A stretch of 49,753 nt of DNA, counting the filler, from Jimgerdemannia flammicorona (lineage: Eukaryota), in NCBI GenBank assembly GCA_003990765.1. It is 2 parts of 2 records of this genome, joined end to end, with 100 filler letters (N's around TTAATTAATTAA, not from the genome) between each part and the next. Parts side by side here need not be neighbours in the genome. Positions count along the whole stretch, not along the records: positions 1 to 24,827 come from RBNJ01000918.1; 1 more part is not named here. One strand, written 5' to 3'. Position 1 is the first letter of the stretch. The number at the start of each line of letters is the position of its first letter. Shown here in pieces: positions 1 to 25,062 of this stretch. The position numbers and the translations under genes were made by a program. The notes under the pieces were generated by a model. The model did not search any database and was not told the origin of the DNA. It was given only the letters and a program-made list of their open reading frames with translations.

Positions 1-2
1 AG

Positions 3-632: not shown

Positions 633-664
633 GTACACGGGTCGGCTCAGGTTGCGATGCACTA

Positions 665-1323
665 CCTGCCCCTGTGGAGATAAGTTTCATCGTGGCCATC
701 TCCTCAGGTGCGGTCTTCTTGGCGGTTCATATTCTGCTTTCCGAGGTTCTTCAGATCGAGATGAACAGCTCGACTGGTTTACCAGTAATGAATGGCAGGA
801 AGAACTTCGTGCCTACCCTCTTCACACTCTCCACGAGACAGCCTACCATGCCATAGATGCCATGTGTAACTCTGGTGGCCATCTTGCGGTCGGGTTCTGC
901 TTGACCGAGATTATGAAGATACTTGGGTGATTGAGCGATCGCACATTTTCCTCACTTCTTTCTTTCCCCTCATTTACCCTGGTTGGTTCTCACGTTGTTG
1001 AGAGCATGTTGAGTTATTCATCTCATATCAGTCGTTTGGTGTTTAGTTGTCGATACAGTTCTTGTAGTAGGTGCCAGGCGAATGTGTATTATATCTTAGC
1101 CTTTCTTTTCTTTGCTTTTTGCATTTATTATCTCTATGGCCATGACAAAATGGTTTTATCCAGCCCGTCCATAGGGTGGTCACCTCTCTGGCCTTTGTTT
1201 TGTACTTCTTAGCTAGTTGTTTACTTCGCTGGCCTCGTTTTGCTTTCCTCATCTTAGGAGTCTTTGTCTTTTGTTGCTCCGATATACCTTTCTCCTCTAC
1301 AATGAATAAATTCTTACTTGAAG
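665..1323 (+). mobile_element. Telomere-associated LINE copy 0 (3' fragment: ORF2 C-terminus with CCHC knuckle, plus 3' UTR)
   Basis: Near-identical to 5830-6493. Encodes CPCGDKFHRGHLLRC, stop at 928-930, AATAAA at 1305-1310, and ends TTCTTACTTGAAG. Confidence 0.92.
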
Positions 1324-1339
1324 CCTAACCCTAACCTAA
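1324..1339 (+). repeat. Telomeric repeat spacer CCTAACCCTAACCTAA
   Basis: C-strand of (TTAGGG)n between copies 0 and 1. Confidence 0.9.
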
Positions 1340-1345
1340 GCCCCT

Positions 1346-1498
1346 CACGTGATTTCCCCATTTGGCTAGACTCGGCTTTACGGCCCGAAGGTATTCCAAA
1401 TTAAGAAAGCAGTCACTTTGATTAGCTAAGCCTCTCATCAGGTATAAATACCCCTCTTTCACATTATTTTTTCATTGCACAAACAAAGGTCACGTGAC
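1346..1498 (+). promoter_or_regulatory. Candidate internal promoter of the LINE
   Basis: CACGTG at 1346-1351, TATAAA at 1443-1448 within a GGTAT/ATACC inverted repeat, and palindrome GTCACGTGAC at 1489-1498. The TATA element is kept in all four copies that have a 5' end. Confidence 0.4.
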
Positions 1499-1552
1499 TC
1501 GTATTTCACAATTTCACAAACACAAACAAATACACCTTTGCCTATTTCGGCA

Positions 1553-3051
1553 ATGTCGGCCACCTCCTCCGTCGTCGGTGATGATGGCAACGCCACCTGC
1601 CTCTTCGCGTGCTTCGGCGCCTCTCTTCGCTACGCTGAATGTCGCGGCGTCGGTCTTCTCTCCCTTGGCTTCAGCAAGGGTAGCCTTATGGTGATGTGCA
1701 GGTCTTGCGGGAATGCATGACTGATATCGTCGTATTTATCTTCCCTGCGTGATGCGGAAGATGACGAAGAGATCACGATCTCTTCCGATTCGGACCATGA
1801 TGCCCAGCACTCCCCCTACTCTCCCACGCCCCCGCCCCTCAATCGGAATAAGCGTGGTCACCCAAACACTAGTTTGAGAATGACCCCGACAGCTGGTCAT
1901 GCAGGCCCCTCAACCGACCCCGATCTGGTCATGGAGATGGCCATGATGAGGAAGCAGATCTCGGATTTGCTGACTCAAGTGGCCGAACTGGCCAAGATCA
2001 ATGCCCAGCTGATGGCGCAGCTTGCTGCGCGTCATGCGCCCACTGCCCCCTCGTCATCTGGTGCTCCCTCGGGAAGCACCCCCACTGTCCCTTCCACATC
2101 CGCCCCCCCCAAGTCCTCGGCCCCCCCTCCTACTGGTCTTGCCACGAACACGCGGTCGAAGGCCCAGAAGTGAGCGGACAAGCGGGCCGTTAAAGCCGCC
2201 GCATCGCAGTCTGGTACACCGCCGAAGGAGGCAACTCCCACGGCTGTGCCTCCAGCTGCTAAAGCCACGCCCCCTAAAAAGGGCAAGGCCAAGGCTCCCG
2301 GGCTAGTGCCCCAGGTTACGCCTGTGGGACCCAGTGCCGCCGGTCCATCTTCATTCTCCGCTTCGACCCCTGCCCCCCCCAAATCATATGCCACCACCGC
2401 CAAGAAGGTCTCTATCAAGGATAGGACCCAGGCCTACTCTGAGACAGAAAGGGCAGCTGCTGCTGCTGCCCTTTCGCGCATGACCCACAAGTCGACCTCT
2501 CATTTGTCGCCGACTGAGAAGGGTGCTAGGCTGCAGCCCGTCTACATTGACAGGTTTGCCCATCTAAAGATCGGGCAGATCTGGAAGAACTTGTATGACG
2601 TCCATGTGATGTTGTCAAAAGTTCTCAACATCTCGTACGTCTCGGCGTCGACTATTGAATTCCTTCTCCGCCCTGATTATGTCACGGCGTTCCAAAAGAA
2701 GATGAAGGTGCTCGGGTTCTCGGTGCTGTCGGCCTGGGACCCGCGCTCCCACGCAACAAAAACGGCACGGAGGCCGTGAAGACATGAGTCCTCCAATCAT
2801 TCTATGCTCGGGTCTGGCAGTTGGCTGGCGAAGCCACTGCAAAGAGGCCCGAGGTGCAGACCTTCTACCGAGCTTGGGCCGCGGAACTTGGCCTTACTCT
2901 TCCTTCCATTGTCTCCCCATCGGCCGGCCCTGCTTCGAAGACAGGTGGTACTGTGGCCATGATAGGTAACATGGCAATGGATTTGGAAGCTGAAGCTTCC
3001 GCCTCAGGTGCTTCTCACACTATTGGTGCTAACGTGCCCGGCCCACAATGA
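1553..3051 (+). pseudogene. LINE ORF1, copy 1 (about 499 aa when repaired)
   Basis: MSATSS start; two CxxC pairs in the consensus (CAEC...CRSC); heptad coiled coil MRKQISDLLTQVAELAKINAQL; Pro/Ala/Lys linker; conserved C-terminal domain. CGA>TGA stops at 1718 and 2171 and a 1-bp frameshift near 2740. Confidence 0.85.
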
Positions 3052-6000
3052 GAGTCGGGTTCCTCAATGCACACAGACTACCCCAGGACAAGTTCGATGT
3101 GCTCAGTCATTTGATTGGTCCTGCCATTGACATTCTCTTCATATGTGAAACGTGGCACATTCTGCTGCATCCCTCTCCGCTCATTCACATGTCCTCCCCT
3201 CTGGTGTTGCACAGGATCATTGGTCACCAGAATGGTGGTCTCGTGGTCCTTGTGTCAAACCATTTCGCCCCCCTTATTTCCGGGTCCTCTGCCGACCCCT
3301 TCCATATCCGACTCATGTTCCAGAGCCTGGCTTTGGTTGGGGTTTACCCCCCCCCCTCTCTTCCCATTGTTGGCTTCCGCAATCTGGTGTCTGGACCCTT
3401 CCCGGGTAAGGCCCTTTTGATCGGTGACATCAATACCTGTTTCGGTGCCTGCTTTGGTGACATCAACTCTGGTCCTCACAATCAGATGGATGTCGTCGAC
3501 ACCTCCCTGATGACATAGTCATTGAACCACCTGACCCCGGTGGCTGGATCTATATGCATTGATCACGTGTTCGCCACCGCGTCCCTCCACGCGTCCCTCA
3601 CCTGCTCTACCCCTCCTGTCGCCACTGACCACCCCTCCCTCCTCACCATCTCCTTCTCCTTCTCTCTCTCGCCGGTTGCTGCCTTGGCTGGCATCCGTCG
3701 TTACTCTGCGAGATACCTGACTGACCCGGTCGTTCAAGCTCACCTTCGGGAATCAGCGGATATCATTTGCGATACCGTTATCAGGTCTATCTACTCCGTT
3801 AGAGACCACATCGCTGGCTTTCACTCTGTGGATGATCGCCAGCAGTTTGTGGATTCCCTTGATGCTTTTTTGACCTCTGGTCTGCAGTCTGTCTATGAGG
3901 ACATTCTTGGCTCATATGATGCAAGAGATATTAGAGCAGTGCCACTCCCTAGGTGTGACCTCCTTCGCAGTGCATCCTCGGTCTCTGATGCCATCCGTGG
4001 TTTTAAGCGAGCGTACCGCTCCACCCCCTCCGCACCCCTTCAGTCCCGCTCTACCAATGTCCCAGTGTTCGATGATGTGGTTGCTCACTTTACCACTATC
4101 TTTGGCCAGCCGGACGCCTCCCTCCGCCTCGATGACTCTGAAGATGTCTTTCTCCTCGACGTGGGCACTCTTGGGCTGCAGTCTTGGTTTGACCAACCTG
4201 CGGTTTGGAGGGCTGTCCGCAGCTACCCACTATCAAAGGCGTGTGGTGCCGACTCCTTGCATGTCCGAATCCTTCGGGTGATGGCAGGTGAGAAGGACAC
4301 CCCCTATAGCCTTTTGAAGGCCCTCTCGTTCTTCTTCCAGATGTGCATGGTTTGGGGGCTCACTCCCCACCACTGGAACTCAGCCATCATCACCCCGGTC
4401 CCGAAGAAGGAGGAATCATGAATGATTGATGGATTTCGCCCTATTGCTCTGACTGAAATGTTTTGTAGACTCTTCGAGCGGTGTTTGGAAGGATATGTCA
4501 AGAGCCGAAGCGGCCTGACAGAAATGTCGCACTGCCAAGGCAGCTTCCGAACCCGCTTCTCGTCCCTTTCTCATGTCTTGCTTTTGCACGAGATGTGGGC
4601 TAAGGGATGGGGCTGCCATATCTTCTTGGACCTCCGGCAGGTGTATGATCGAGTCCCCCTCAAGTGCATTCTTTCTTGCCTTGAGGCGCGAGGTGCCGAT
4701 GCAGCCCTCCTTAGCATTATCCGAAGCCTGTTCAATCACTGCTCTTATCAGGTGGTTGTTAATGGCCTCATCACCCCTTCGGTCCCCACTGAGTGCAGCC
4801 TCTTCAAGGACTCCCTCCTCTCCCCTTGGCTCTTTGATGTCTTTATCGACCCCCTCGCCGCCTCTTTTGATGAACAGTTCAAGGAGTACGACTTCCCCCT
4901 CGGGCTTTTCTTCGCTGATGATATCGCCCTTACCCCCCGTACTGCCGCGGAAGGGCAAAGGATGGTTGACTTCTGTGAGGATTGGCTTCAGGTGAACGGT
5001 ATGGAGCTCAATCCCAAGAAGTGTGGTTATGTCAGCCCAGCAGACTGTACTGTGCTGATTGGGGGTGAACTCTGCCCGCGACCCACCTCCTACGTATACC
5101 TGGGTGTACCGTACACCAACAAAGGGTTTGACTTTGTCATCCTCGCGTTGCAGAATGCGGCAAAGGCGGAACGAACCCTTGGGTTCTGCCTTGCCCGTGG
5201 TCCTCTCTGGTTGCCAATGGTCAAGTTGGCCATCGTACGAACATTCATCAGACCTCAGCTGGAGTATGGCCTCCCCCTCCTACGAGCCTCCTGTCCGGCT
5301 ACTACCACGGGGCTTCAGGTGTTGAAGTGTCCCGAGCAGGTCTTTGATGATGCTGTCGCTTGGGCAGTTGGATTTTCCGGCCGTCCCTTGCTTGGCAGTT
5401 CGATTCTCGGCCTCCCTTCCTTCCTTTGTCACATGTCTGACCTCTGCTGCATGTTCCAAGCCTATCTGGATTGGTGTAGCAAGTCGGGCAACAACCCCAT
5501 CGGCCCTCTTAGCGAGCACTTTGTCACGCATCCCCTGGGTTCTATCATTGATAAGTTCCGGCGTTGGACCTCCTGGCTTGACTTCCTCGACTAGTACTGG
5601 GACCTCCGTCCCCAGGTCCACAAGACTCACTCGCTCTGCTCCTTCCTCCAGTCCTTTCTCCGGGATCAGCTGCTGCAGGAATGGGCCTCCTCCTCCCAGG
5701 CTCTCATTCGGTATATTACCCCCAAAGGCCATTTACGGTCGCGGGGCGCCGATCGCGTCCTTTCCTTCCCCCCCCGGCTTGTGCATTCTGCCCTCGCCTG
5801 GCGCTATGGCTACTTTGGCCAACCCCGCCCCTGCCCCTGTGGAGATAAGTTTCATTGTGACCATCTCCTCAGGTGCGGTCTTCTCGATGGTTCGTATTCT
5901 GCTTTCCGAGGTTCTTCAGATCGAGATGATCAGCTCGACTGGTTTACCAGTGACGAATGGCAGGAAGAACTTCGTGCCTACCCTCTTCATACTCTTCATG

Positions 6001-6095
6001 AGACAGCCTGCCATGCCATAGATGCTATGTGTAATTCTGGTGGCCACCTCGCGGTCGGGTTCTGCCTGACCGAGATTATGAAGATGCTTGGGTGA
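3048..6095 (+). pseudogene. LINE ORF2, copy 1: APE endonuclease + reverse transcriptase + CCHC (1015 aa, one frame)
   Basis: APE motifs FLNAH, DILFICETW, LIGDIN, IDHVF, TDH. RT motifs PVPKK, FRPIAL, FLDLRQ.YDRV, LSPWLF, FFADDI, LNPKKC, YVYLG. C-terminal CPCGDKFHCDHLLRC. Only three in-frame stops (3516, 4419, 5592), all single transitions. Confidence 0.95.
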
Positions 6096-6493
6096 TCGAG
6101 CAATCGCACATTTTCTTTACTTCTTTCTTTCCCCTCATTTGCCCTGGTTGGTTCCCCCCGTTGTTGAGAGCGCATTGAGTTATCATCTCATATTAGTCGT
6201 TTGGTGTTTAGTTGTCGATACGGTTCATGTAGTTGGTACCGGGTGAATGTGTATTATATCTTAGCCTTTCTTTTCTTTGCTTTTTGCATTTATTATCTCT
6301 ATGGCTCTGACAAAATGGTTTTATCCAGCCCATCCATAGGGTGGTCACCTCTCTGGCCTTTGTTTTGTACTTCTTAGCTACATAGTTGTTTACTTCACTG
6401 GCCTTGTTTTGCTTTTCTCATCTTAGGAGTCTTTGTCTTTTATTGCTCCGATGTATCTTGTCTTCTCTACAATGAATAAATTCTTACTTGAAG

Positions 6494-6503
6494 CCTAACC
6501 TTA
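6494..6503 (+). repeat. Degenerate telomeric spacer CCTAACCTTA
   Basis: Between copies 1 and 2, in the same phase as the other junctions. Confidence 0.75.
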
Positions 6504-6716
6504 GCCACTCACGTGATTTCCCCATTTGGTTAGACTCAGCTTTACAGCCCGAAGCTATTCCAAATTAAGAAAGCAGTCACTTTGATTAGCTAAGCCTCTC
6601 ATCGGGTATAAATACCCCCCTTCCCCATTATTTTTTCGTTGCACAAACAAAGGTCACATGACTCATATTTCACAATTTCACAAAAACAAACAAACACACC
6701 TTCGCCTATTCCGGCA

Positions 6717-8214
6717 ATGTCGGCCACCTCCTCCGTCGTCAGTGATGATGGCAATGCCACCCACCTCTTTGCATGCTTCGTCGCCTCTCTCCGCTGCGCT
6801 GAATGTCGCGGCATCAGTCTCCTCTCCCTCGGCTTCGGCGAGAGTAGCCTTACGGCGATGTGCAGGTCGTGCGGGGATGCACGACCGATCTCATCGTATT
6901 TATCTTCCCTGCGCAATGTGGAAGATGACAAAGAGATTGCGATCTCTTCCGATTCAGACCACGACGCCCAGTGCCCCCCCTACTCTCCCATGCCACCGCC
7001 CCTCAATCGGAACAAGCGCGGTCGCTGGAACACTAGTTTGGGAATGACCCCGACAGCCGCTCGTGTGGGCCCCTCAGCCGACCCCAATCTGGTCACGGAG
7101 ATGGCCGCGATGAGAAAGCAGATCTCTGACCTGCTGACTTAGGTAGCCAAACTGGCCAAGATCAATGCCCAGCTGATGGCGCAGCTTGCTGCGCATCATG
7201 CACCCACCACCCCCTCATCATCTGGTGCTCCTTCGGGAAGTACCCCCGCTGCCCCTTCCACATCCGCCCCCCCCAAGTCCTCGGCCCCCCCTTCTACTGG
7301 TCCTGCCGCGAACATGCAGTTGAAGGCCCAGAAGCGAGCGGACAAGCGGGCTGCTAAAGCCGCCACGTCACAGTCTGTGCGCCACCAAAGGAGACAACTC
7401 CCATGGCTGTGCCCCAGCCGCTAAAGCCGTGCACCCTAAAAAGGGCAAGGGCAAGGTCTCCGGGCCAGTGCCCCAGGTTATGCCTGTGGGACCCAGTGCC
7501 GCCGGTCCATCTTCATCCCCTGTTTCGACCCTCGCCCCCCCCAAATCATATGCCGCTGCCACCAAAAAGGTCTCTATCAAGGATAGGACCCAGGCCTACC
7601 CCGAGACGGAAAGAGCAGCTGCTGCCGCCGCCTTTTCACGCATGACCCACAAGCCAACCTCTCATTTGTCACTGACTGAGAAGGGCACTAGGCTGCAGCG
7701 TGTTTACATCGATGGATTTGCCCATCTGAAGATCGGGCAGATCCGGAAGACCTTGTACGACATACATGTGATATTGTCAAAGGTCCTTAACATGTCGTAC
7801 GTCTTGGCGTTGACCATCGAATTCCTGCTCCACCCTGATTATGTCACGGCATTCCAAAGGAAGATGAAGGCACTCGGGTTCTCGGTGCTGTTGGCCTGGG
7901 ACTCTGCGCTCTCATGCAACAAGAACGCCACAGAGGCTGTGAAGACACGGGTACTCCAATCATTCCATGCTCGGGTCTGGCAATTGGCAGGCAAAGCCAC
8001 TGTGAAGAGGCCCGAGGTGCAGAGCTTCTAATGAGCTTGGGCCGCGGAACTCGGCCTCACTCTCCCCTCCCTCGCCTTCCCGCTAGCCGGCCCTGCTTCG
8101 AAGGCAGGTGGTACTGTGGCAGTGACGGGTGAAATGGTGATGGATCTGGAAGCTGAAGCTTCCACCTCAGGTGCTTCCCATGCTGTTTGTGCTAACGTGC
8201 CCAGCCTACAATGA
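6717..8214 (+). pseudogene. LINE ORF1, copy 2
   Basis: Homologous to 1553-3051; stops at 7140 and 8029, frameshift near 7380. Confidence 0.85.
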
Positions 8215-11200
8215 GAGTCGGGTTCCTCAATGCATACGGACTACCCCAGGACAAGTTCGATGTGCTCAGTCAGTTTATTGGTCCTGCCCTCGACATTCTT
8301 TTCGTATGTGAAACATGGCACATTCCGCTGCGTCCCTGTCCGCTCATTCACATGTCCTCACCTCTGGCATCATACAGGATCATGGGTCACCAGAATGGTG
8401 GTCTCGTGGTCCTTGTGTCAAACCATTTCGCCCCCCTCATTTCCGGGTCCTCCGCTGACCCCTTCCATATCCGGCTCATATTCCAGGGCTTGGCTTTGGT
8501 TGAGATTTACACCCCCCCCTCTCTTCCCATTGGTGGCTTCCGTGATCTGGTGTCTGGACCCTTCCCGGGTAAGGCCCTTTTGATCGGTGACATCAATACC
8601 CGCTTCGGTGCCCGCCTTGGTGACGTCAACTCTGGTCCTCACGATCGGATGGATGTCGTCGACACCTCTCTGATGACGTGGTCGTTGAACCACCTGACCC
8701 CGGTGGCTGGATCTATATGCTTTGACCATGTGTTTGCCACTGCGTCCCTCTACACATCCCTCACCTGCTCCACCCCTCCTGTCGCTACCGACCACCCCTC
8801 CCTCCTCACTGTCTCCTTCCCCTTCTCCCCCTCACTGGTTGCTGCCCTGGCTGGCATCCATTATTACTCTGCAAGGTACCTGACCGATCCGGTCATTCAA
8901 GCTCACCTTCGGGAATCAGCGGATATCATTTGCGATACCATTATCAGGTCTATCTACTCTGTTAGGGACCACATTGCTGGCTTTCGCTCTGTGGATGATC
9001 GCCAGCAGTTTGTGGATTCTCTTGATGCTCTTTTGACCTCTGGTCTACAGTCTGTTTGTGAGGACATTCTTGGCTCATATGACGCAAGAGAAATCAGAGC
9101 AGCGCTGCTCCCTAGGCGAGACCTCCTCCGCAGTGTATTCTCAGTCTTGAATGCCATTCGTGGTTTTAAGCGAGCATACCGCTCCACCCCCTCCGCACCC
9201 CTCCAGTCCCGCTCCCCCAATGTCCCGGTATTCGACGACGTGATTGTTCACTTTATTACTATCTTCGGCCAACCAGAAGCCTCCCTCCATCTCGATGACT
9301 CAGAAGATGTCTTCCCCCTCGGCGTGGGTGCTCTTGAGCTGCAGTCTTGGTTTGACCAACCTATAGTTTGGAGGGCTGTCCGCAGCTACCCCCTCTCGAA
9401 GGTATATGGTGCCGACTCCTTGCATGTCCGGATCCTTCAGGTGATGACAGGTGAGAAGGATGCCCCCTGTAGCCTTTGGAAGGTCCTCTTGTTCTTCTTC
9501 CAGATGTGTGTAGTTTGGGGGCTCACTCTCTGCCACTGGAACTCAGCCATCATCACCCTGGTCCCCAAGAAGGAGGAATCGCAAATGATCGATAGATTTC
9601 GCCCTATTGCTCTGGCTGAAATGTTTCGTAGACTCTTCGAGCGATGTTTGGAAGGATACATCAAGAGCCGAAGTGGCCTGACAGAAATGTCATGCTACCA
9701 AGGTGGCTTCCAAACCCGCTTCTCATCCCTATCTCATGTCTTGTTATCGCACGAGACGTGGGCTAAGGGATGGGGCCGCTATGTCTTTTTGGACCTCCGG
9801 CAGGTGCAAGATCGAGTCCCCCTCAAGTGCATCCTTTCTCGCCTTGAGGCACAAGGTGCCGATGCAGCTCTCCTTAGTATTATTCGAAGCCTGTTCAATC
9901 ACTGTTCTTATTAGGTGGTTGTTAATGGCCTCGTCACACCTTCAGTCCCCACTGAGCATGGCCTCTTCCAGGACTCCCTCCTCTCCCCTTGGCTATTTGA
10001 TGTCTTTATCGATCCCCTCGCCACCTCTTTTGATGAGCAGTTTAAGGTGTACGACTTCCCCCTCAGGCTTTTCTTTGCTGATGACATCACCCTTACCCCC
10101 CGCACTACCGCGGAAGGGCAAAGGATGGTTGATTTCTGTGAGGATTGGCTCCAGGTGAACGGTATGGAGCTCAATCCCAAGAAGTGTGGTTATGTTGGCC
10201 CGGCTGACTGTACTGTGCTGATTGGGGGCGAACTCTGCCCACGACCCACCTCCTACGTGTACCTGGGCATGCCGTACACCAACAAAGGGTTTGACTTTGT
10301 CAACCTTGCATTGCAGAATGCGGCGATGGCGGAACGAACTCTTGGTTTCTGCCACACTTGTGGTCCCCTCTGGTCGCCAATGGTCAAGTTGGCCATCATA
10401 CGAACATTCATCAGGCCTCAGCTGGAGTATGGCCACTCTCTTCTACGAGCTTTCTGTCCAGCTACTACCACGGGGCTTCAGGTGTTAAAGCATCCCGAGC
10501 AGGTCTTTGATGATGCTGTCGCTTGGGCGGTTGGATTTTCCGGCCGTCCCTTGCTTGGCAGCTCGATTCTTGGCCTCTCTTCCTTCCTTTGTCATATGTC
10601 TAACCTCTGCTGCATGTTCTAAGCCCACCTGGATTGGTGTAGCAAGTCGGTCAACAAACCTATCGGTCCCCTTAGCGAGTGCTTTGTCACGTGTCCCCCA
10701 GGTTCTATTATTGACAAGTTCCGGCATTGGACCTCTTGGCTTGACTTCCTCAACTGGTACTGGGACCTTCGTCCCCAGGTCCACAAGACTCACTCGCTCC
10801 GCTCCTTCCTCCAGTGCTTCCTTTGGGATCAGTTGCTGTAGGAATGGGCCTCCTCTTCCCAGGCTCTCGTTTGGTATATCACTCCCAAAGGCCACTTGCG
10901 GTTGAGGGATACCGATCATGTCCTCTCCTTCCCCCCCCGGCTTGTGCATTCTGCCCTTGCTTGGCATTATGGCTACTTTGGTCAACCCCGCCCCTGCCCC
11001 TGTAGAGATAAATTTAATTGTGGCCATCTCCTCAGGTGCAGTCTTCTCAATGGTTCGTATTCTGCTTTCCGAGGTTCTTCCGATCATGATGAACAACTCG
11101 ATTGGTTTTCCAATAACGAATGGCAGAAAGAACTTTATGCCTACCCTCTTCACGCTCTTCACGAGACAGCCTACCATGCTATAGACACCATGTGTAATTC

Positions 11201-11258: not shown

Positions 11259-11352
11259 TCAAGTGATCGCACATTTTCTTTACTCCTTTTCTTCCCCTCA
11301 TTTGCCCTGGTTGGTTCTCCAGTCGTTGAGAGTGCATTGAGTTATTCATCTC

Positions 11353-12526: not shown

Positions 12527-12846
12527 GAGCATGTTGAGTTATTCATCTCATGTCAGTCGTTTGGTGTTTAGTTGTCAATATAGTTCATGTAGTTGGTGCC
12601 AGGCGAATGTGTATTATATCTTAGCCTTTCTTTTCTTGCTACTGCATTTATTATCTATACAGCCATGACAAAATGGTTTTATCCAGCCCGTCCATAGGGT
12701 GGTCACCTCTCTGGCCTTTGTTTTGTACTTCTTAGCTAGTTGTTTACTTCGCTGGCCTTGATTTGCTTTTCTCATCTTAGGTGTCTTATCTTTTGTTGCA
12801 CCGATGTACCCTATCTTCTCTACAATGAATAAATTCTTACTTGAAG

Positions 12847-12857
12847 CCTAACCCTAA
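12847..12857 (+). repeat. Telomeric spacer CCTAACCCTAA
   Basis: Between copies 2 and 3. Confidence 0.88.
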
Positions 12858-15800
12858 GCCACTTATGTGATTTCCCATTTGGCTAGACTCGGCTTTACGG
12901 CCCGAAGCTATTCCAAATTAAGAAAGCAGTCACTTTGATTAGCTAAGCCTCTCATTGGGTATAAATACCCCCTTCACCATTATTTTTTCATTGCACAAAC
13001 AAAGGTCACATGACCTGCATTTCACAATTTCACAAACACAAACAAACACACCTTCACCTTTTCCGGCAATATCGGCCACCTCCTCCATCGTCGGCAATGA
13101 CAGCAATGCCACCTGCCTCTTTGTGCACTTTGGCGCCTTTCTCCGCTGTGCTGAATGCCGCGGCATCGGTCTTCTCTCTCTTGGCTTCGGCGAGGGTAGC
13201 CTTATGGTGATGTGCAGGTCGTGTGGGGATGAACGACCGATTTCATCGTATTTATCTTCCCTGCATGATGCGGAAGATGATGAAGAGATCGCAATCTCTT
13301 CCAATTTGGACCATAATGCCCAGCGCCCCCCTACTCTCCCACACCCCCACCCCTCAACCGGAACAAGCGTGGTCGCCCGAATACTAGTTTGGAAATGACC
13401 CCAACTGCCAGTCGTGCAGGCCCCTCAGCCGACCCCGATCTAGTCACGGAGATGGCCGTGATGAGGAAGCAGATCTCGGATCTGCTGACTCAAGTAGCCG
13501 ATCTGGCCAAGATCAACACCCAGCTGATGGCGCAGCTAGCTGCGCGTCATGTGCCCACCGCCCCCTCGTCATCTGGTGCTCCCTCGGGAAGTACCCCCAC
13601 TGCCCCTTCCACATCTGCCCCCTCCAAGTCCTTGGCCCCCCCTCCTACTGGTCCTGCCACGAACATGCGGTCAAAGGCCCAGAAGCGAGCGGACAAGCGG
13701 GCCGCTAAAGCTGCCACGTCGCAGTCTGGTGCACCGCCAAAGGAGGCAACTCTCATAGCTGTGCCTCTGGCCGCTAAAGCCGCACCCACTAAAAAGGGCA
13801 AGGCCAAGGCTCCCGGGCCAGTGCCCCAGGTTACGCCTGTAGGACCCAGCACCGCCGGTCTGTCTTCATCCCCTGCTTCGACCCCCGCCCCCCCCAAATC
13901 ATATGCTGCCACCGCCAAGAAAGTTTCTATCAAAGATAGGACCCAGGCCAACCCCGAGATGGAAAGAGCAGCTGCTGCCACCGCTCTTTTGCGCATGACC
14001 TGGAAGCCGACCTCTCATTTGTCACTGACTGAGAAAGGAGCTAGGCTCCAGCGTATTTACGTCGACAGGTTTGCCCATCTTAAGATCGGGCAGATCCAGA
14101 AGAACTTGTACGACGTCCATGTGATGTTGTCAAAAGTTCTCAATATGTCGTACGTCTCGGCGTCGACCATCGAATTCCTGCTCCACCCTGATTATGTCAC
14201 GGCGTTCCAAAAGAAGATGAAGGCACTCGGGTTCTCAGTGCTATTGGCCTGGGACCCTGCACTCCCATGCAACAAGAACGCCATAGAGGCCGTGAAGACA
14301 CAGGTACTCCAATCATTCCATGCTTGGGTCCGGTAGTTGGCAGGTAAAGCCACTGCGAAGAGGCCTGAGGTGCAGACCTTCTACCAAGCCTGGGCCGTGG
14401 AACTCGGCCTCACTCTCCCCTCCCCTGCTTCCCCATCGGCTGGCCCTGCTTCGAAGGCAGGTGGTACTGTAGTCATGATAGGTAATATGGTGATGGATTT
14501 GGAAGCTGAAGCTTCCACCTCAGGTGCTTCCCATACTGTTGGTGCTAATGCGTCTGGCCCACAATGAGAGTCGGGTTCCTCAATGCACATGGACATCCCA
14601 GGACAAGTTCGATGTGCTCAGTCGATTGATTGGTCCTGTCCTCGAGGTTCTTTTCATATGTGAAATGTGGCACATTCCGCTGCATCCCTCTCCACTCATT
14701 CACATATCCTCTCCTCCAGCATCGAACAGGATCGTGGGTCACCAGAACAGTGGTCTCGTGGTCCTTGTATCAAACTGTTTCGCCCCCCTTATTTCCAGGT
14801 CCTCCGCCAACCCCTTCCATATCCGGCTCATGTTCCAGAGCTTGGCTTTGGTTGGGGTTTATGCCCACCCTTCTCTACCCATTGGTGGCTTCTGTGATCT
14901 GGTGTCTGGACCCTTCCCAGGTAAGGCCCTTTTGATCGGTGACATCAATACCCGCTTCGGTGCCTGCCTTGGTGACGTCAACTCTGGTCCTCGCGATCGG
15001 ATAGATGTCGTCGACACCTCCTTGATGACGTGGTCGTTGAACCACCTGACTCCAGTGGCTGGATCTACTTACGTTGACCATGCGTTCGCCACCGCATCCC
15101 TCTATAAGTCTCTCACCTGCTCTACCCCTCCTGTCACTACTGACTACCCCTCTCTCCTCACTGTCTCCTTCCCCTTCTCCCCCTCACCGGTTGCTGCCTT
15201 GGCTGGCATCCGACGTTACTCTGCGAGATATCAGACCAATCTGGTCATTCAAGCTCATCTCTGGGAATTAGCGGATATCGTTTGCGATACCATTATCAGG
15301 TCTATCTACTCTGTCAGAGACTACATCGCCGGCTTTTGCTCTATGGAAGATCGCCAGCAGTTTGTGGATTCCCTTGACGCCCTTTTGACCTCTGGTCTAC
15401 AGTCAGTCTGTGAGGACATTCTTAGCTCGTATGATGCAAGAGAGATTAGGGTGGCACTGCTCCCTCGGCGTGACCTCCTTCACAGTGCATCTTCAGTCTC
15501 TGATGACATCTGTGGCTTCAAGCAAGCATACTGCTCCACCCCCTCCACGCCTCTCCAATCTCGCTCTCCCAATGTCCCAGTATTCGATGATGTGGTTGCC
15601 CACTTCACCACCATCTTCGGCCAGCTGGATGCCTCCCTCCGCCTTGATGACTCTGAGGACATCTTCCCCCTTGGCGTGGGCGCTCTTGGGCTGCAGTCTT
15701 GGTTTGACCAACCTGTGGTTTGAAGAGCTGTCTGTAGCAACCCCCTCTCAAAGATGTGTGGTGCTGACTCCTTGCATGTCCAGATCCTTCGGGTGATGGC

Positions 15801-18005
15801 AGGTGAGAAGGACGCCCCTTGTAGCCTTTCGAAGGCCCTCTTGTTCTTCTTCCAGATGTGCATGGTCTGGGGGCTCACACCCTGCCGCTGGAACTCAGCC
15901 ATCATCACCCCAGTCTCCAAGAAGGAGAAATCACAAATGATCGATGGATTTCGCCCTATTGCTCTGACTGAAATGTTTTGTAGACTCTTCGAGCAGTGTT
16001 TGGAAGGATATGTTAAGAGCTGAAGTGGCTTGACAGAAATGTCGTGCTGCCAATTTGGCTTCTGAACCTGCTTCTCGTCCCTTTCTCATGTCTTGTTATC
16101 ACACGAGACATGGGCTAAGGGATGGGGCCACCGTGTCTTTTTGGACCTTCGGCAGGCGTATGATCGAGTCCCTCTCAAGTGCATTCTTTCCCGCCTTGAG
16201 GTACAAGATGCCGACGCGACCCTCCTTAGTATTATTCGAAGCCTGTTCAATCATTGTTCTTATCAGGTGGTTGTTAATGGCCTCATCACCCCTTCGGTCC
16301 CCACTGAGCGTAGCCTCTTCCAGGGCTCCCTCCTCTCCCCTTAGCTGTTTGATGTCTTTATCAACCCCCCTTGCCGCCTCCTTTGATGAGCAGTTCAAGG
16401 AGTACGACTTCTCTCTCGGGCTTTTCTTTACAGATAATATCGCCCTTATCCCCGGCACTGCTGCAGAAGGGCAAAGGATGGTTGATTTTTGTAAGGATTG
16501 GCTTCAGGTGAACGGTATGGAGCTCAATCCCAAGAAGTGTGGTTATATTGGCCTGGCTGACTATACTGTGCTGATTGGGGGTGAACTCTGCCCACGACCC
16601 ACCTCCTACATGTACCTGGGCGTGCCATACACTAACAAAGGGTTTGATTTTATCAGCCTTGTGTTATAGAATATGGCAAAGGCAGAATGAACTCTTGGGA
16701 TCTACAGTGCCCATAGTCCCCTCTGGTCACCAATGGTCAAGTTGGCCATCGTACGAACGTTTATCAGGCCTCAACTGGAGTATGGCCTCCCCCTTCTATG
16801 AGCTTCCTGTCCAGCTACTATCACGGGGCTTCAGGTATTAAAGCGTCCCGAGCAGGTCTTTGATGATGCTGTTGCTTAGGTGGTTGGATTTTCTGGCTGT
16901 CCCTTGCTTGGCAGTTTGATTCTTGGTCTCCCTTCCTTTCTTCGTCATATGTCTGACCTCTACTGCATGTTCCAAGCCCTTCTGGATTGTTGTAGCAAGT
17001 TGGGCAACAACCCCATCAGTCCCCTTAGCAAGCGCTTTGTCACGCGCCCCCCGGGTTCTATTATTGATAAGTTCCGGCATTGGACCTCTTGGCTTGACTT
17101 CCTCGACTAGGACTGGGACCTCTGTCCCCAGGTCCGCAAGACTCACTCACTCTGCTCCTTCCTCCAGTCCTTCCTTCAGGATCAGCTGCTACAGGAATGG
17201 GCCTTCTCTTCCCAGGCTCTTGTTCAGTACATCACCCCCAAAGGCCGCTTGCGGTCACGGGGTACCAATCGTGTCCTCTCCTTCCCACCCTGGCTTGTGT
17301 GTTCTACCCTTGCTTGGTACTATGGCTATTTTGGCCAACCCCGCCCCTGCCCCTGTAGAGATAAGCTTAATCGTGGCCATCTCCTCAGGTGCGGTCTTCT
17401 CGATGGTTTGTATTCTGCTTTCCGAGATTCTTCCGATCGTGAAGAACAGCTCGATTGGTTTACCAATGATGAATGGCAGGAGGAATTTCATGCCTACCCT
17501 CTTCATGCTCTTCACGAGACAAGCTACCATGCCATAGATGCCATGTATAATTCTGGTGGCCACCTCATAGTTGGGTTCTGCCTGATTGAGATTATGAAGA
17601 TGCTTGGGTGATCGAGCGATTACACATTTTCTTTACTTCCTTCTTTCCCCTCGTTTGCTTGATTGATTCCCCCCGTTGTTGAGAGTATATTGAGTTATTC
17701 ATCTCATGTCAGTCGTTTGGTGTTTAGTTGATGATACAGTTCATGTAGTTGGTGCCAGGTGAATGTGTATTATATCTTAGCCTCCCTTTTCTTTGCTTTC
17801 GCATTTCATTATCTATATGGCCATAACAAAATGGTTTTATCCAGTCCGTCCATAGGGTGGTCACCTCTCTTGCTTTTATTTTATACTTCTTAGCTAGTTG
17901 TTTACTTCACTGGTCTTGTTTTGCTTTTCTCATCTTAGGAGTCTTTGTCTTTTGTTGCTCCGATGTATCTTATCTTCTCTACAATGAATAAATTTTTACT
18001 TGAAG
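12858..18005 (+). mobile_element. Telomere-associated LINE copy 3 (full length, decayed)
   Basis: Colinear with copy 1. ORF1 13069-14567 (start mutated ATG>ATA); ORF2 14564-17611 with frameshifts and stops; catalytic ADD mutated to TDN. Confidence 0.93.
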
Positions 18006-18025
18006 CCTAACCCTAACCCTAACCC
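18006..18025 (+). repeat. Telomeric spacer CCTAACCCTAACCCTAACCC
   Basis: Longest perfect tract (20 bp); joins copy 4, which lacks the first 11 nt of the element. Confidence 0.92.
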
Positions 18026-21000
18026 GATTTCCCCATTTGGCTAGACTTGGCTTTACGGCCCGAAGCTAAACCAAATTGAGAAAGCTGTCACTTTGACTAG
18101 CTAAGCCTCCCATCGGGTATAAATACCCCCTTCTCCATTATTTTTTCATTATATAAACAAAGGTCATATAACCTATATTTCAAAATTTCACAAATACAAA
18201 CATTCCTCCATCTAATTTGGTAATGTTGGCCACCTCATCTATCATCGGTAATGACAGCAACACCATCCATCTCTTTGTATGCTTCAGCACCTCTCTTTGC
18301 TATGCTGAATGTCATGGCATCAATCTCTTCTCTCTTGGTTTTGGCAAGGGTAGCCTGATGGCGATGTACTGATCATGCGGGGATACACGACCAATATTGG
18401 CGTATTTATCTTCCCTGCATGATGCAGAAGATGACAAGGAGATTGTGATCTCTTCCGATTTGGACCATGACACCCAGCACTCTCCCTACTCTCCAATACC
18501 ACCACTCCTCAATTAAAACAAGCATGGTTGCCCAAACACTAGTTTGAAAATGACCCCGATGGCTGGTCATGTGGGTCCCTCAGCCGACCCCGATCTGGTT
18601 ACAGAGATGGCTGCAATGAGGAAGCAGATCTCAGATCTGCTGACTCAGGTGGCTGAACTGGCCAAGATCAATACCCAGCTGATAGTACAGCTTGCTGTAT
18701 GATCTGCACCCACTGCCCCCTCATCATCTGGTGCTCCTTTGGGAAGTACCCCTACCACCATTTCCACATCTGCCCCCCCCAAGTTCTCGGTCCCCCCTCC
18801 TACTAGTCCCACTGCGAATACACAGTTAAAGGCCCAGAAGAGAGCGGATAAGTGAGCCACCAAAGCCGCTGCATCATAATCTGGTGTGCTGCTGAAGGAG
18901 GCAACTCTCATGGCTGTGCCTCTGGCTGCTAAGGCTGCACCCCCTAAAAAGGGCAAGGCCAAAGCCCCCAGGCCAGTACCCCATGTTATGCCTGTGGGTC
19001 CCAGTGCTGCCAGCCAGTCTTCGTCCCCTACTTCGACCCCTGCCCCCCCCAAATCGTACGCCACCGCTGTTAAGAAGATTTCTATCAAAGATTGGACCCA
19101 GGCCTACCCCAAGATGGAAAGGGCAGCTGTCACCACCACCCTCTCACATATGACTGATATGCCGACCTCTCATTTGTCGCCGACTGAGAAGGGCGCTAGG
19201 CTGCAGTGCATTTATGTTGATGGGTTTGCCCATCTTAAGATCAGGTAGATCCAGAAGAACTTGTATGACATCCATGTGATGTTGTCAAAAGTTCTCAACA
19301 TGTCATATGCCTCGGCGTCGACCATCGAATTCCTGCTTCGCCCTAATTATATCATGGCATTCCAAAAGAAGATAATGGTGCTCGGGTTCTCAGTGCTGTC
19401 AGCCTGAGGCTCTGTGCTCCCCACAACAAGAATGCCATGGAGGCCATGAAGATACAGATACTCCAATCATTCCATGCTCAGATCCGGCAGTTGGCTGGTG
19501 AAGCCACTGCGAGAAGGCCTGAGGTGCAGACCTTCTATAGAGCTTGGGCTGCAGAACTCGGCCTCACTCTCCCTTCTTTCACCCCACCATTGGCCAGCCC
19601 TGCTTCGAAGGCAGATGGTACCGTAGCTGTAATGGGTGAGATAGTGATGGATTTGGAAGCTGAAGCTTCCTCCTCAGGTACTTCCCATGCTGTTGGCACT
19701 AATGCACCCAGCCCACAATGAGAGTCGGGTTCCTCAATATATATGAACTACCTCAGGACAAGTTTGATGTGCTCAGTCAGTTGATTGTTCCTGCCCTCGA
19801 CATTCTTTTCATAGCACATCTCACTGCGTCTCTCTCTGCTCATTCACATGTCCTCCCCTCCAGCATCACACAGGATCATGGGCCACCAAAATGGCAGTCT
19901 TGTGGTCCTTGTGTCAAACTGTTTCGCTCCCCTCATCTCCGGGTCCTTCACTGACCCCTTTCATATTCAGCTTATGTTCCAGGGCCTGGCTTTGGTTGGG
20001 GTTTATGCCCCCCCTCCCTTCCTATTGGTGGTTTCCATGATCTGGTGTCTGGACCCTTTCTGGGTAAGGCTCATCTGATCAGTAACATCAATACTCACTT
20101 TGGTGCCTATCTTAGTGATGTCAACTCTGGTCCCCACAACCAGATGGATGTCGTTGACATCTCCCTAATAACATGATCATTGAACCACCTGACCCCAGTG
20201 GCTGGATCTATATGTGTTGATCACGCATTCACCACTGCATCCCTCTACGCGTCTCTCACCTACTCCACCCCTCCTGTTGCTACCAACCACCCCTCTCTCC
20301 TCACTGTCTCCTTTCCCTTCTCTCTCTTGCCGGTTGCTGTCTTGGCTGGTATCTGTCATTACTCTGCGAGATACCTGACTGATCCGGTCATTCAAGCTCA
20401 CCTTCGGGAATTAGCAGATATTGTTTGCGATACTGTTGTCAGATCTGGTATTGAAGCATCCCAAGCAGGTCTTTGATGATGCTGTCACTTGGGCAGTCAG
20501 ATTTTCCAGCTGTCTCTTGCTTGGCAGCTCCATTCTTGGTCTCCCTTCCTTTCTTCATTGAACGTCTGACCTCTGCTGAATGTTCCAAGCCCACCTGGAT
20601 TGGTGTAGCAAGTCTGGTAACAATCCCATTGGCCCCCTTAGTGAGTGCTTTATCATGCATCCCTCGGGTTCTATTATTGACAAGTTCTGGTGTTGGACCT
20701 CTTGGCTTGACTTCCTCAACTAGTACTGGGACCTTTGTCCCCAGGTCTGCAAGACTCGCCTGCTCTGCTCCTTCCTCCAGTCCTTCCTTCAGGATCAGCT
20801 ATTGCAGTAATGGGCCTCCTCTTCTCAGGCTCTCATTCAGTATATCACCCCCAAAGGCCACTTGCAGTCACGGGGCGCTGACCATATCCTCTCCTTCCCC
20901 CCCCAGCTTGTGTGTTCTGCCCTCGCCTAGTGCTATGACTACTTTGGCCAACCCTGCTCCTGCCTCTGTGGAGATAAGTTTCATTGTGGACATCTCCTCT

Positions 21001-21618
21001 GGTGTGGTCTTCTTGATGGCTCATATTCTGCAATCTGAGGAACTTTCGATCGAGATGAACAACTTGATTGATTTACTAATGACGAATGGCAGGAAGAACT
21101 TCATGCCTACCCTCTTCATGCTCTTCATGAGATAGCCTATCATGCTATAGACACTATGTATAATTCTGGTGGCTACCTCATGGTCAGGTTCTGCCTGACC
21201 GAGATTATGAAGATGCTTGGGTGATCGAGCAATTGCACATTTTCTTTACTCCTTTCTTTCCCCTCATTTGCCTTAGTTAGTTCCCTTGTTATTGAGAGCA
21301 CATTGAGTTATTCATCTCATGTCAGTCATTTGGTATCTAGTTGTCGATACCGTTCATGTAGTTGGTGCCAGGCGAATGTGTATTATACCTTAGCCTTTCT
21401 TTTCTTTGCTTTTTGCATTTATTATCTTTATGGCCATGACAAAATGGTTTTTATCCAGCCCGTCCATAGGGTGGTCACCTCTCTGGCTCTTGTTTTGTTC
21501 TTCTTAGCTAGTTGTTACTCTGCTGGCCTTTTTTTGCTTTTCTCATCTTAGGAGTCTTTGTCTTTTGTTGCTCCAATGTACCTTGCCTTCTCTACAATAA
21601 ATAAATTCTTACTTGAAG
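18026..21618 (+). mobile_element. Telomere-associated LINE copy 4 (most decayed; ~1.53-kb internal deletion removes the RT core)
   Basis: ORF1 remnant 18223-19721, ORF2 remnant 19718-21224; the junction at 20446/20447 joins positions equivalent to 3788 and 5318 of copy 1. Confidence 0.92.
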
Positions 21619-21634
21619 TCTAACCCTAACCCTA
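21619..21634 (+). repeat. Telomeric tract TCTAACCCTAACCCTA at the right end of the array
   Basis: Follows the invariant TTCTTACTTGAAG 3' end. Confidence 0.88.
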
Positions 21635-25031: not shown

Positions 25032-25062
25032 ATTGAATAGATATTGTAGAAGAGACCCCAAC

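Follow-up and report, generated by a model that had tools for sequence, protein, structure and literature searches.

Positions 664-21634 of the window, by which we mean the whole analysed stretch of 49,753 nt from Jimgerdemannia flammicorona, hold copies of a two-ORF non-LTR retrotransposon, all dead and arranged head to tail, with short telomere-type repeats joining one unit to the next. The element belongs to a large fungal family of endonuclease-bearing LINEs joined to telomere repeats that is apparently undescribed, and the same junctions and tandem pairs are found in independent relatives. This clade of APE LINEs is real, and telomere repeats are probably its target. As an explanation of the whole we lean towards a family that has an APE endonuclease, primes its target-primed reverse transcription on telomere repeats, and forms arrays by successive outward insertion.

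Organisation and decay of the array

The array is made up of three full-length copies of ~5.15 kb, a copy with an internal deletion and a 3' remnant of 660 bp (Table 1). Identity among the copies is 83-90%, every one of them has stops or frameshifts, and all units are dead. Over 710 aligned nt the remnant u0 shares 90% identity with u1, and no telomere repeat was found on its 5' side, either in the flank sequence or in the boundary alignment. The longest open stretch of the array (8211-9914) lies in ORF2 of u2 and spans 567 aa with the APE domain intact; the same unit has three in-frame stops in ORF2 and three frameshifting indels in ORF1. The innermost unit, u4, has lost ~1.5 kb of ORF2 and contains six stops in ORF1 and eight in the ORF2 that remains.

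Private substitutions number 188 in u1, 220 in u2, 269 in u3 and 305 in u4, of which only 3.6 kb is left, and per length they rise inwards (~3.6, ~4.3, ~5.2 and ~8.4%), which fits outward growth of the array. The gradient comprises four units, which would line up monotonically in a given direction by chance once in 24 times, and it is not extended by u0, with 35 private changes in 710 nt.

Table 1. Coordinates of the array, its junctions and the surrounding DNA in the window
Feature	Position	Strand	Description
u0	~664-1323	+	5'-truncated; last ~660 bp (ORF2 end and 3' UTR); homology to other units begins near 664
u1	1340-6493	+	full-length; 5' end GCCCCTCACGTGATTTCCCC; 3' UTR end AATAAATTCTTACTTGAAG
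u1 ORF1	~1721-2779	+	one premature stop
u1 ORF2	3048-6095	+	one frame throughout; three in-frame stops
u2	6504-12846	+	full-length, includes foreign 1192-bp insertion
u3	12858-18005	+	full-length; ORF2 with nine in-frame stops and two frameshifting indels
u4	18026-21618	+	innermost, most diverged; starts ~12 nt inside consensus 5' end
Junction tract 1	1324-1339	+	CCTAACCCTAACCTAA, 16 nt
Junction tract 2	6494-6503	+	CCTAACCTTA, 10 nt
Junction tract 3	12847-12857	+	CCTAACCCTAA, 11 nt
Junction tract 4	18006-18025	+	CCTAACCCTAACCCTAACCC, 20 nt, longest of the five
Terminal tract	21619-21634	+	TCTAACCCTAACCCTA, 16 nt, runs straight into AT-rich flank DNA
Left-flank minisatellite	341-629	+	33-bp units, ~8 copies, adjoins u0; TRF rows 341-394 and 367-629
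Foreign retroposon in u2 3' UTR	11345-12536	-	1192 bp, poly(A)-tailed, antisense, outside the LINE family
Right flank	21657-23881	+	AT-rich, transition-riddled copies of the poly(A) retroposon also found in u2
Assembly linker	24828-24927	.	N44-TTAATTAATTAA-N44; ends the contig of the array
Second contig	24928-49753		24826 bp, bears a NAT gene

Telomere-type repeats at the 3' ends

The 19-nt 3' end of the element, AATAAATTYTTACTTGAAG, occurs exactly five times, always on the plus strand (at 1305, 6475, 12828, 17987 and 21600), against an expectation from shuffles of 0.01. With at most one mismatch, CCCTAACCCTAA also gives five matches, all on the plus strand, where 0.26 are expected and none of 100 shuffles reached five or more. 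Both a reading of the sequence and the alignment place all five tracts directly against the element 3' end, beginning with CCTAAC or TCTAAC, and an AATAAA signal lies 5-25 nt ahead of the tract in the window and in four relatives (L001-L004). Poly(A) is absent from the five window ends and from those of the relatives. The initial annotation had described five copies of ~5.15 kb, each with a 3' end followed by 10-20 bp of (CCCTAA)n instead of poly(A) and then by the next unit, and had equated the sense strand with the C-strand. Direct reading and alignment agree with this for all five 3' ends, which have the same orientation, 10-20 nt of CCTAACCCTAA-type repeat in sense, no poly(A), and then the next unit or the flank; as for the copies, just three (u1, u2 and u3) are full-length.

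We hypothesize that insertion of the family occurs by target-primed reverse transcription at telomeric repeats, on their G-rich strand, where a 3'-OH ending in ...TTAGG(G) would prime cDNA synthesis on an RNA that ends just past the AAUAAA signal. Priming at a telomere repeat would give a sense strand that ends in unique 3' sequence followed by CCTAACCC..., without poly(A). The 3'-OH would most likely come from the element's own endonuclease, nicking the repeat at a fixed place, a specificity that we infer from the junction register only. Later insertions could then enter the short telomere tract on the outer side of the previous copy, leaving the oldest copy innermost, and the receiving tract might be what the last insertion left behind, or else a chromosome end that telomerase had lengthened again. 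The tracts in the window are very short (10-20 nt), a point that speaks against this explanation.

The 3' ends are identical in all five units and in one register, tract lengths differ (16, 10, 11, 20 and 16 nt), and the 5' ends vary (three full, one minus ~12 nt, one minus ~4.5 kb), which together point to separate events of target-primed reverse transcription and not to one junction that was copied. The array would carry no information on targeting if unequal crossing-over or segmental tandem duplication had turned a single insertion beside an internal telomere-like motif into five units. In favour of this, tandem arrays are prone to unequal exchange, the 5' start is the same at three of the four internal junctions, and two tracts (CCTAACCTTA and CCTAACCCTAA) are nearly alike. 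Against it, u4 follows a longer tract and lacks the first ~12 nt of the element, the truncation of u0 lies 4.5 kb into the element, and the divergence is graded and not patchy. The same joint also recurs in the independent loci L001 and L004, with a different truncation point in the second unit of L004, and we find such an amplification very improbable.

Proteins and the APE endonuclease

The element is a LINE with an ORF1 and an ORF2, and the predicted ORF2 product runs from an APE-type endonuclease at the N-terminus through a reverse transcriptase to a CCHC motif at the C-terminus. Pfam RVT_1 matches the window copy u1 (E=6e-18) and 19 of 19 family members, FADD is invariant in the family RT, and the nearest solved relatives of the RT by sequence are R2 and LINE-1 ORF2p. 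Pfam gives no APE-domain match for the window copy alone, and Exo_endo_phos (PF03372) matches seven of the 19 family members at E<=0.1; the first match of a profile of the N-terminal domain is LINE-1 EN (E=0.0015). An AlphaFold model built from 45 sequences (pLDDT 93) has human LINE-1 ORF2p/EN and APE1 as its best Foldseek matches (E ~1e-10, TM 0.62), and the modelled APE fold carries conserved catalytic residues: N7, E34, Y100, D127, N129, H173 and H195 are invariant in the 45 sequences, and D172 and D194 are conserved in at least 90% of them. The core of the domain measures ~205 aa in an ORF2 of ~1000 aa. The strict CCHC pattern matches 31 of 45 sequences, with C929 invariant, and ORF1, which belongs to no Pfam family, has a C-terminal part that is conserved among the window, L002 and L003 (25-31% identity). 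No RNase H was matched by Pfam in the 19 family members at E<=0.1, a search that alone may miss a divergent domain.

Telomere association could also arise without the endonuclease, if a few CCCUAA repeats at the 3' end of the RNA paired with the single-stranded TTAGGG overhang and the 3'-OH of the latter served as primer, so that arrays would grow at true chromosome ends only. Overhang priming of this kind has been proposed for Penelope-like elements that lack an endonuclease and, in broad terms, for HeT-A/TART. It would agree with a sense strand that is the C-strand in the window and in all five relatives with a visible 3' end, with poly(A) that is never copied and with an age gradient that fits strictly terminal addition, and the AATAAA is so near the tract that transcripts of arrayed copies could end within the next tract. 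A fixed 3' junction register is, on the other hand, the outcome of a site-specific nick, and one relative (L007) is not terminal. The catalytic residues are moreover invariant or nearly so in 45 sequences whose APE domains have only 21-33% identity to that of the window, which suggests that the endonuclease is under selection and presumably used. We think priming without a nick unlikely.

Metagenomic relatives

The family comprises at least 150 clusters at 50% identity, and seven metagenomic family loci were studied, five of which include the region past ORF2. All five, with 24-31% ORF2 identity, show telomere-type (CCCTAA) repeats there on the sense strand. In L003 a (CCCTAA)3 tract ~100 nt past the stop leads into a 30-bp minisatellite in which CCCTAAC is embedded with unchanged orientation, and the two together have the look of a telomere/subtelomere boundary. 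L002 has CCTAACCCTAACCC at the contig end, L007, a single copy, has a tail of 2.5 units, CCCTAACCCTAACCC, and L001 has a degenerate CCTAAATAACCCTAAAGG tract. Two telomere-repeat ends are present in L004, which like L001 is a head-to-tail pair with the repeat at the joint, its second unit being truncated at a different point. A telomere 11-mer was found in four of the seven family loci, always in sense, and in 0 of 73 non-family LINE loci (268.5 kb, both strands). The telomere junction is thus a property of the whole family and not of this locus, since it is present in 5/5 relatives and in 0/73 unrelated loci.

Many LINEs have 3' microsatellite tails, and the CCCTAA-like tail could be one that the element encodes, with dispersed copies and with pairs that come from insertion into the tail of an earlier copy. 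The short tracts (10-20 nt) with their single starting register would suit such a tail, as would the non-terminal single copy L007 and the want of telomere repeat outside u0 and on the 5' side of L007. It is, however, hard to see why six lineages with just 24-31% ORF2 identity should all carry the canonical telomere unit without a telomere link; tract length differs from copy to copy, the minisatellite that follows the tract in L003 is telomere-like and has its polarity, and the contigs of the relatives, 3-7 kb in length, break at or close to the element ends, which is what a repeat context common to many copies would produce. We regard an encoded tail as distinctly unlikely.

L007 has an intact ORF2 (999 aa) that is separated by ~10 kb or more from both ends of its 48.5-kb contig and has other ORFs around it, so either non-terminal insertion happens or telomeres become internalised.

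Relation to described elements

The architecture proposed in the initial annotation, ORF1 followed by APE-RT-CCHC, is borne out by the RVT_1 match, the APE model and fold matches and the conserved catalytic residues. Its view that no APE-encoding telomere-specific LINE is known to be described in fungi is also supported, in that our full-text literature search found no such element, only REL-type (MoTeR, FoTeR, Cnl1) and Penelope-like ones.

TRAS and SART, from Bombyx and other insects, are members of the animal R1 clade whose copies end in poly(A); in TRAS the C-strand is the sense strand. TRAS1 and SART1 are listed as telomere-repeat LINEs (PMC10088271; PMC4640811). They resemble the present family in having two ORFs, an APE endonuclease at the N-terminus and a fixed register of insertion into telomeric repeats. 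In structure and host they differ from it in that ours is found in fungal hosts and has no poly(A), no RNase H by Pfam and an ORF2 of only ~1000 aa. As in TRAS/SART-like elements, the 3' junction has a fixed register and orientation: 5/5 window junctions start CCTAAC or TCTAAC, and the repeats are in sense in 5/5 relatives, as against 0/73 controls. Tad1-clade elements are described as having an RNase H domain downstream of the RT (PMC4640811). With APE-type elements of L1-like architecture the element shares a non-LTR RT, an N-terminal APE fold, an upstream ORF1 and a C-terminal Cys-His motif, but not the poly(A) or A-rich tail, the ends in the window and in the relatives running into CCCTAA-type repeats.

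Fungal non-LTR elements described in or at telomere repeats are MoTeR1 of Pyricularia, FoTeR of Fusarium oxysporum and Cnl1 of Cryptococcus, with Cnl1-like elements in Malassezia (PMC12857005; PMC12810828; PMC10410736). They too have telomere repeats at the 3' junction and truncated copies, and their arrays are described as lying at chromosome ends. They are CRE/R2-type, with a single ORF in which the RT is followed by a C-terminal REL endonuclease, the motif being given as CCHC...RHD/N...E...R/KPD (PMC12857005). This motif is present in 0/45 of our proteins, where just 42-79 aa follow the CCHC, and its absence, the two ORFs and the N-terminal APE set the family apart from these CRE-clade elements.

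For endonuclease-less PLEs and the subtelomeric 'family 4' element of Zymoseptoria, the features described are a 3' end that is directed away from the telomere and bears one to three telomere hexamers, and tandems in which truncated copies adjoin full ones (PMC4522978); Coprina-1_Alen is given as an example of such a Penelope-like element (PMC13159263). Coprina and Athena are PLEs with a telomerase-like RT and no endonuclease, unlike the present 5.15-kb units with ORF1 and APE, and family 4 measures 3.4-3.5 kb. The conserved APE domain sets our family apart from endonuclease-less Penelope-like elements.

HeT-A, TART and TAHRE of Drosophila form head-to-tail arrays with the 3' end inwards that grow at the outer end, where the outermost copy is 5'-eroded. 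The array in the window resembles them in these respects, but their junctions carry oligo(A), without telomerase repeats between units, whereas every junction here has telomerase-type repeat. Tx1-1_ACar (lizard), Zepp (Chlorella) and GilM/GilT (Giardia) are listed as other independent LINEs linked to telomere repeats or chromosome ends (PMC10088271); by description they are similar, but they come from different kingdoms and clades.

Telomere-targeting retrotransposons bear on how parasites become devices for end maintenance, as in Drosophila and Bombyx, and they destabilise fungal chromosome ends, as MoTeR does. If our explanation is true, telomere targeting would have evolved convergently in three retroelement classes within one kingdom. 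The compact APE domain, with a nick site presumably specific for telomeres, would then be of use for comparison with TRAS1 EN, and the family could serve as a marker of fossil chromosome ends in draft fungal assemblies.

Flanks of the array

The window joins two contigs; the array is on one of 24.8 kb, and its position is known relative to that contig only. Beyond u0 there is, instead of telomere repeat, a minisatellite and the tail of an acidic ORF. The minisatellite carries GGGTTA, opposite in orientation to the CCCTAA of the array, and TRF places a stretch of 23-bp period (341-394) ahead of the 33-bp units. This distal side, with its 33-bp minisatellite and gene tail, and the non-terminal L007 argue against strict telomere specificity. 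The locus may nevertheless once have been at or near a chromosome end. A fuller reading, which we offer tentatively, would see a large undescribed fungal clade of two-ORF LINEs, specialised through the APE on telomeric repeats and priming on the TTAGGG strand with no poly(A) tail copied, as a third independent fungal route to telomere targeting, with arrays that mark present or fossil chromosome ends. The array in the window would in that case be a chromosome end that was healed and later internalised, its seed being 2.7 telomere units attached directly to mutated repeat DNA.

A duplication of ~18 bp, (G)CAT(G)TTGAGTTATTCATCTC, lies on either side of the foreign retroposon in u2. Its copies in the right flank (21657-22030, 22546-23724 with a long A run after it, and 23760-23881) have 65-81% identity to it by blastn, with a TpA/ApT of 1.24 and a GC of 0.37. 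The host genes in the window have an ascomycete look.

3' junctions and decay of the array

The five LINE units of the head-to-tail array end alike. The 19-nt sequence AATAAATTYTTACTTGAAG occurs five times in the window, always on the + strand (starts 1305, 6475, 12828, 17987 and 21600), where shuffled sequences lead one to expect 0.01, and by direct reading and alignment all five copies run straight into a short telomere-type tract. With at most one mismatch, CCCTAACCCTAA has five matches on the + strand of the window against 0.26 expected, and poly(A) is absent from every unit of the array. The same-orientation 3' ends joined by telomere repeats without poly(A), which the initial annotation had described, are real and far beyond chance. 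In the alignment, tracts 1 to 4 each directly precede the start of the next unit, which reads GCC(C/A)CT(C/T)A(C/T)GTGATTTCCC at three junctions, and the innermost unit, u4, starts about 12 nt farther inside the element, behind the longest tract.

Features of the array and its flanks in the window, and 3' junctions of the metagenomic relatives
Feature	Sequence	Position	Strand	Basis	Remarks
u0	window	~664-1323	+	MAFFT, repeat families, boundary alignment	last ~660 bp only
Junction tract 1, CCTAACCCTAACCTAA	window	1324-1339	+	read, aligned	
u1	window	1340-6493	+	MAFFT, repeat families	full length; ORF1: 1 stop; ORF2: 3 stops, no frameshift
Junction tract 2, CCTAACCTTA	window	6494-6503	+	read, aligned	
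u2	window	6504-12846	+	MAFFT, repeat families	full length + 1192-bp foreign insertion; ORF1: 3 frameshifting indels; ORF2: 3 stops
Poly(A)-tailed retroposon, 1.19 kb (1192 bp)	window	11345-12536	antisense		in 3' UTR of u2; target duplication ~18 bp; GC-rich copy
Junction tract 3, CCTAACCCTAA	window	12847-12857	+	read, aligned	
u3	window	12858-18005	+	MAFFT, repeat families	full length; ORF2: 9 stops + 2 frameshifts
Junction tract 4, CCTAACCCTAACCCTAACCC	window	18006-18025	+	read, aligned	longest
u4	window	18026-21618	+	MAFFT, repeat families	~1.5 kb missing within ORF2; ORF1: 6 stops; ORF2: 8 stops plus deletions
Terminal tract, TCTAACCCTAACCCTA	window	21619-21634	+	read, aligned	AT-rich flank DNA next
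Copies of the same retroposon, right flank	window	21657-22030, 22546-23724, 23760-23881			65-81% identical, AT-rich as after RIP
Linker between the two records, N44-TTAATTAATTAA-N44	window	24828-24927			
Degenerate CCTAAATAACCCTAAAGG, then second element	L001	2952-4835 (ORF1 of second element)			second element: ORF1 + start of APE domain
...AATAAAGCTTAACCGTAACT-CCTAACCCTAACCC	L002	contig end			intact ORF1 + ORF2
(CCCTAA)3, then eight 30-bp minisatellite copies	L003	~100 nt past stop; minisatellite 4476-4717			copies embed CCCTAAC, same polarity
Two ends, AATAAAGTAGA(A/C)GCGCAT.., then CCCTAAAACCCTAACCC and CCCTAACCCTA	L004				second unit 5'-truncated
CCCTAACCCTAACCC	L007	1.2 kb past ORF2			intact 999-aa ORF2

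Unit borders were drawn from a MAFFT alignment of the units together with repeat-family detection. Pairwise identity between units is 83-90%, with about 6-7 transitions per transversion. C-to-T and G-to-A changes are most frequent at CpG (~0.6 per site), followed by CpA/TpG (0.23-0.30), and the classical RIP indices are negative across the array. Private substitutions number 188 in u1, 220 in u2, 269 in u3 and 305 in u4, a shorter unit. This rise fits growth at the outer (left) side, which would make the innermost copy the oldest, with four units as a thin basis; the fragment u0 does not prolong the trend. All copies in the array are dead. Positions 1-24827 have no Rfam match at E<=1, and the unit ends thus carry no known ribozyme.

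At the 5' end of the full-length units (1340-1470 and equivalents) there is a CACGTG box within CCCCTCACGTGA, and GGGTATAAATACCCC lies about 110 nt inside that end. CCCCTCACGTGA is also present about 70 nt past the junction of the second unit of L001 (about 2760-2780). Both sequences may be promoter elements, and a TATA box 3' of the element's 5' end is odd for a LINE.

Encoded proteins

ORF1 is about 350 aa long in u1 and its C-terminal part is conserved among the relatives. It matched no Pfam family, and in a cluster search the intact ORF1 of the metagenomic locus L002 matched only fungal protein clusters, none of them named. ORF2 of u1 spans 3048-6095 in a single frame and contains RVT_1 (E=6e-18) with a FADD box, as well as a C-terminal motif C-x2-C-x7-H-x3-C that is followed by just 42-79 residues. 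Pfam recognised RVT_1 alone in the ORF pieces of the window, with no endonuclease family for the N-terminal 230 residues; Exo_endo_phos was matched in 7 of 19 relatives. A profile of four N-terminal sequences had the LINE-1 endonuclease as its top PDB match (E=0.0015). The AlphaFold model from an alignment of 45 family sequences reached a pLDDT of 93, and its best Foldseek matches were human LINE-1 ORF2p/EN and APE1 (E about 1e-10, TM 0.62); the model from four sequences had a pLDDT of 57, and its fold search nonetheless pointed to APE1 and L1-EN. Across the 45 sequences, N7, E34, Y100, D127, N129, D172-H173 and D194-H195 either do not vary or are conserved to at least 90%. These residues align with the APE catalytic set, as mapped onto the residue numbers of L1-EN. 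Together, the Pfam and profile matches, the model and the conservation show that the N-terminal 230 residues of ORF2 form an APE domain. The REL endonuclease signature RHD/N...E...R/KPD is found in none of the 45 family proteins, and no RNase H domain was detectable in the element. From the Pfam, profile and structure matches and the conserved residues, the element is thus an ORF1 + APE-RT-CCHC LINE, the architecture that the initial annotation had given it.

Relatives and their 3' junctions

A word-based search found 18 full-family proteins with 25-33% identity, all about 1000 aa long, and a profile search of 1.84 billion representatives found at least 150 proteins at E below 1e-200, mostly as end-to-end matches, so the family is large. 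Twenty relatives were looked up; they are on contigs of 3-7 kb and none has a transposon name attached. The scan of metagenome contigs gave 80 loci: tblastn matches that are full-length or high-scoring make seven of them family members (L001-L007), and the other 73 are LINEs that match in the RT only. DNA past ORF2 is present in five of the seven, and in all five the 3' UTR ends in telomere-type repeats on the sense strand; L005 and L006 stop short of their 3' ends. A telomere 11-mer is present in four of the seven family loci, always sense, as against none of the 73 control loci on either strand (268.5 kb). The CCCTAA-type flank first noticed in the window recurs in relatives. Repeat-joined head-to-tail pairs are found in the window, L001 and L004, which share at most 30% of their ORF2 residues, and the joining is therefore common to three lineages. 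The telomere-repeat junction is thus conserved throughout a fungal family of large size.

Comparison with published elements

The non-LTR elements associated with fungal telomeres are MoTeR, FoTeR and Cnl1 with its Malassezia relatives, all of them single-ORF elements of the CRE/R2 type with a REL endonuclease (PMC12857005, PMC12810828, PMC10410736). Endonuclease-less Penelope-like elements, e.g. Coprina-1_Alen, make up the other fungal class (PMC13159263). In L007, a palindromic unit of ~62 bp is repeated about four times upstream of the ORF1 region (8040-8300), which recalls the 5'-biased VNTRs described for FoTeRs (PMC12857005). The closest to the habit of our family, compared by description only, is Zymoseptoria 'family 4', which is 3.4-3.5 kb long, is confined to subtelomeres, occurs also as truncated copies in tandem, and has a 3' end that points away from the telomere and bears one to three TTAGGG; its authors interpret it as putatively Penelope-like (PMC4522978). 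In the available parts of two reviews, a 2023 survey of telomeric retrotransposons has MoTeR1 as its sole fungal entry (PMC10088271), and a 2015 overview assigns most LINEs with target specificity to the early-branched groups, the Tx1 clade and a third group (PMC4640811).

Full-text searches of the literature yielded no APE-type telomere LINE in fungi, in agreement with what had been proposed, and the fungal cases in the parts available are REL-type or Penelope-like; the accessible sections of the Cladosporium and Epichloe genome papers and of a Pyricularia telomere review describe no such LINE. The family may already have a clade name in Repbase/Dfam, subscription journals or bioRxiv supplements, which lay outside the reach of this search. 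The third group of the 2015 overview is presumably R1. LINEs that target telomere repeats are already known as a kind, and we rate the present family as probably belonging among them.

Proposed mechanism of integration

The sense strand of the element is the C-strand, and the unique 3' sequence is followed by CCTAACCC in one register, without poly(A), while tract length and 5' end differ between units. These features are most simply read as target-primed reverse transcription that would start at a 3'-OH within the G run of the TTAGGG strand. Given how strongly the APE catalytic residues are conserved, we favour the element's own endonuclease as the source of this 3'-OH, which it would create by nicking the repeat at one fixed position, as TRAS/SART do; nick-free priming on a natural overhang, in the manner of Penelope-like elements or HeT-A, is possible. 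In the window and in L001-L004, AATAAA stands 5-25 nt upstream of the tract, a position that suggests RNA cleavage where the following tract begins or just within it, and a few CCCUAA pairing with the primer could leave the poly(A) uncopied. That the element is strictly specific to telomeres, where it would nick the repeat and where on a chromosome the array sits are inferences.

Surroundings of the array

The array is on a contig of ~24.8 kb. On the outer side of u0 there is no telomere repeat, only a 33-bp minisatellite (341-629) that contains GGGTTA in a polarity opposite to the array, followed at the contig edge by the last part of an acidic ORF. On the inner side, 2.7 telomere units lie directly against copies of an unrelated poly(A) retroposon that are AT-rich and heavily mutated by transitions. 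With a non-telomeric outer side and a retroposon-flanked inner side, the locus can at most be a chromosome end that is fossil or has become internal. A speculative history would be a telomerase-healed break within repeat DNA that received LINE additions and was later capped or fused. A long A run is found behind one of the right-flank retroposon copies. The array itself, unlike these copies, is not AT-rich, and the mutating process that seems to have acted on the flank thus either left the array untouched or came before it.

Minisatellites of 30-33 bp with telomere-like motifs adjoin elements both in L003 (after the tract, same polarity) and in the window (outside u0, opposite polarity). The arrangement in the window could reflect two chromosome ends joined together. 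The acidic ORF (window 1-140) has internal 30-bp repeats, reads ...EEEDQLVYS... and meets its stop at ~138.

For L007, with its intact ORF2, neither end of the contig is nearer than ~10 kb, and there is no telomere repeat on the 5' side. Directly after its telomere repeats comes a 2.7-kb tract (14217-16900) whose C-strand has almost no G, 27 in 2684 nt. A test of this tract for 6-nt periodicity found none, and YYYTAA is enriched 3-fold in it; the tract may be what decay has left of a long internal telomere tract, or an unrelated stretch of polypyrimidine.

The linker shows the window to be two contigs of ~24.8 kb each placed end to end, and the array and the genes at 36-49 kb are not necessarily adjacent. 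In agreement, the N-acetyltransferase gene finds itself on a contig of 24,826 bp, exactly the span 24928-49753. The genes on the second record are eukaryotic: an arylamine N-acetyltransferase (38781-39761), Tom7, an intron-split class I tRNA synthetase and a kinase. Among named N-acetyltransferases the closest come from Pezizomycotina, lichen-forming and others, at only 30-36% identity, which by itself would suggest an ascomycete, probably, and nothing narrower. The first ~7 kb of this record (24928-32000) have a strong excess of C over G on the + strand (GC skew -0.4 to -0.5) and may be another repeat element; a G/E-rich ORF of 606 aa without a Pfam family lies within them on the minus strand (25063-26883).
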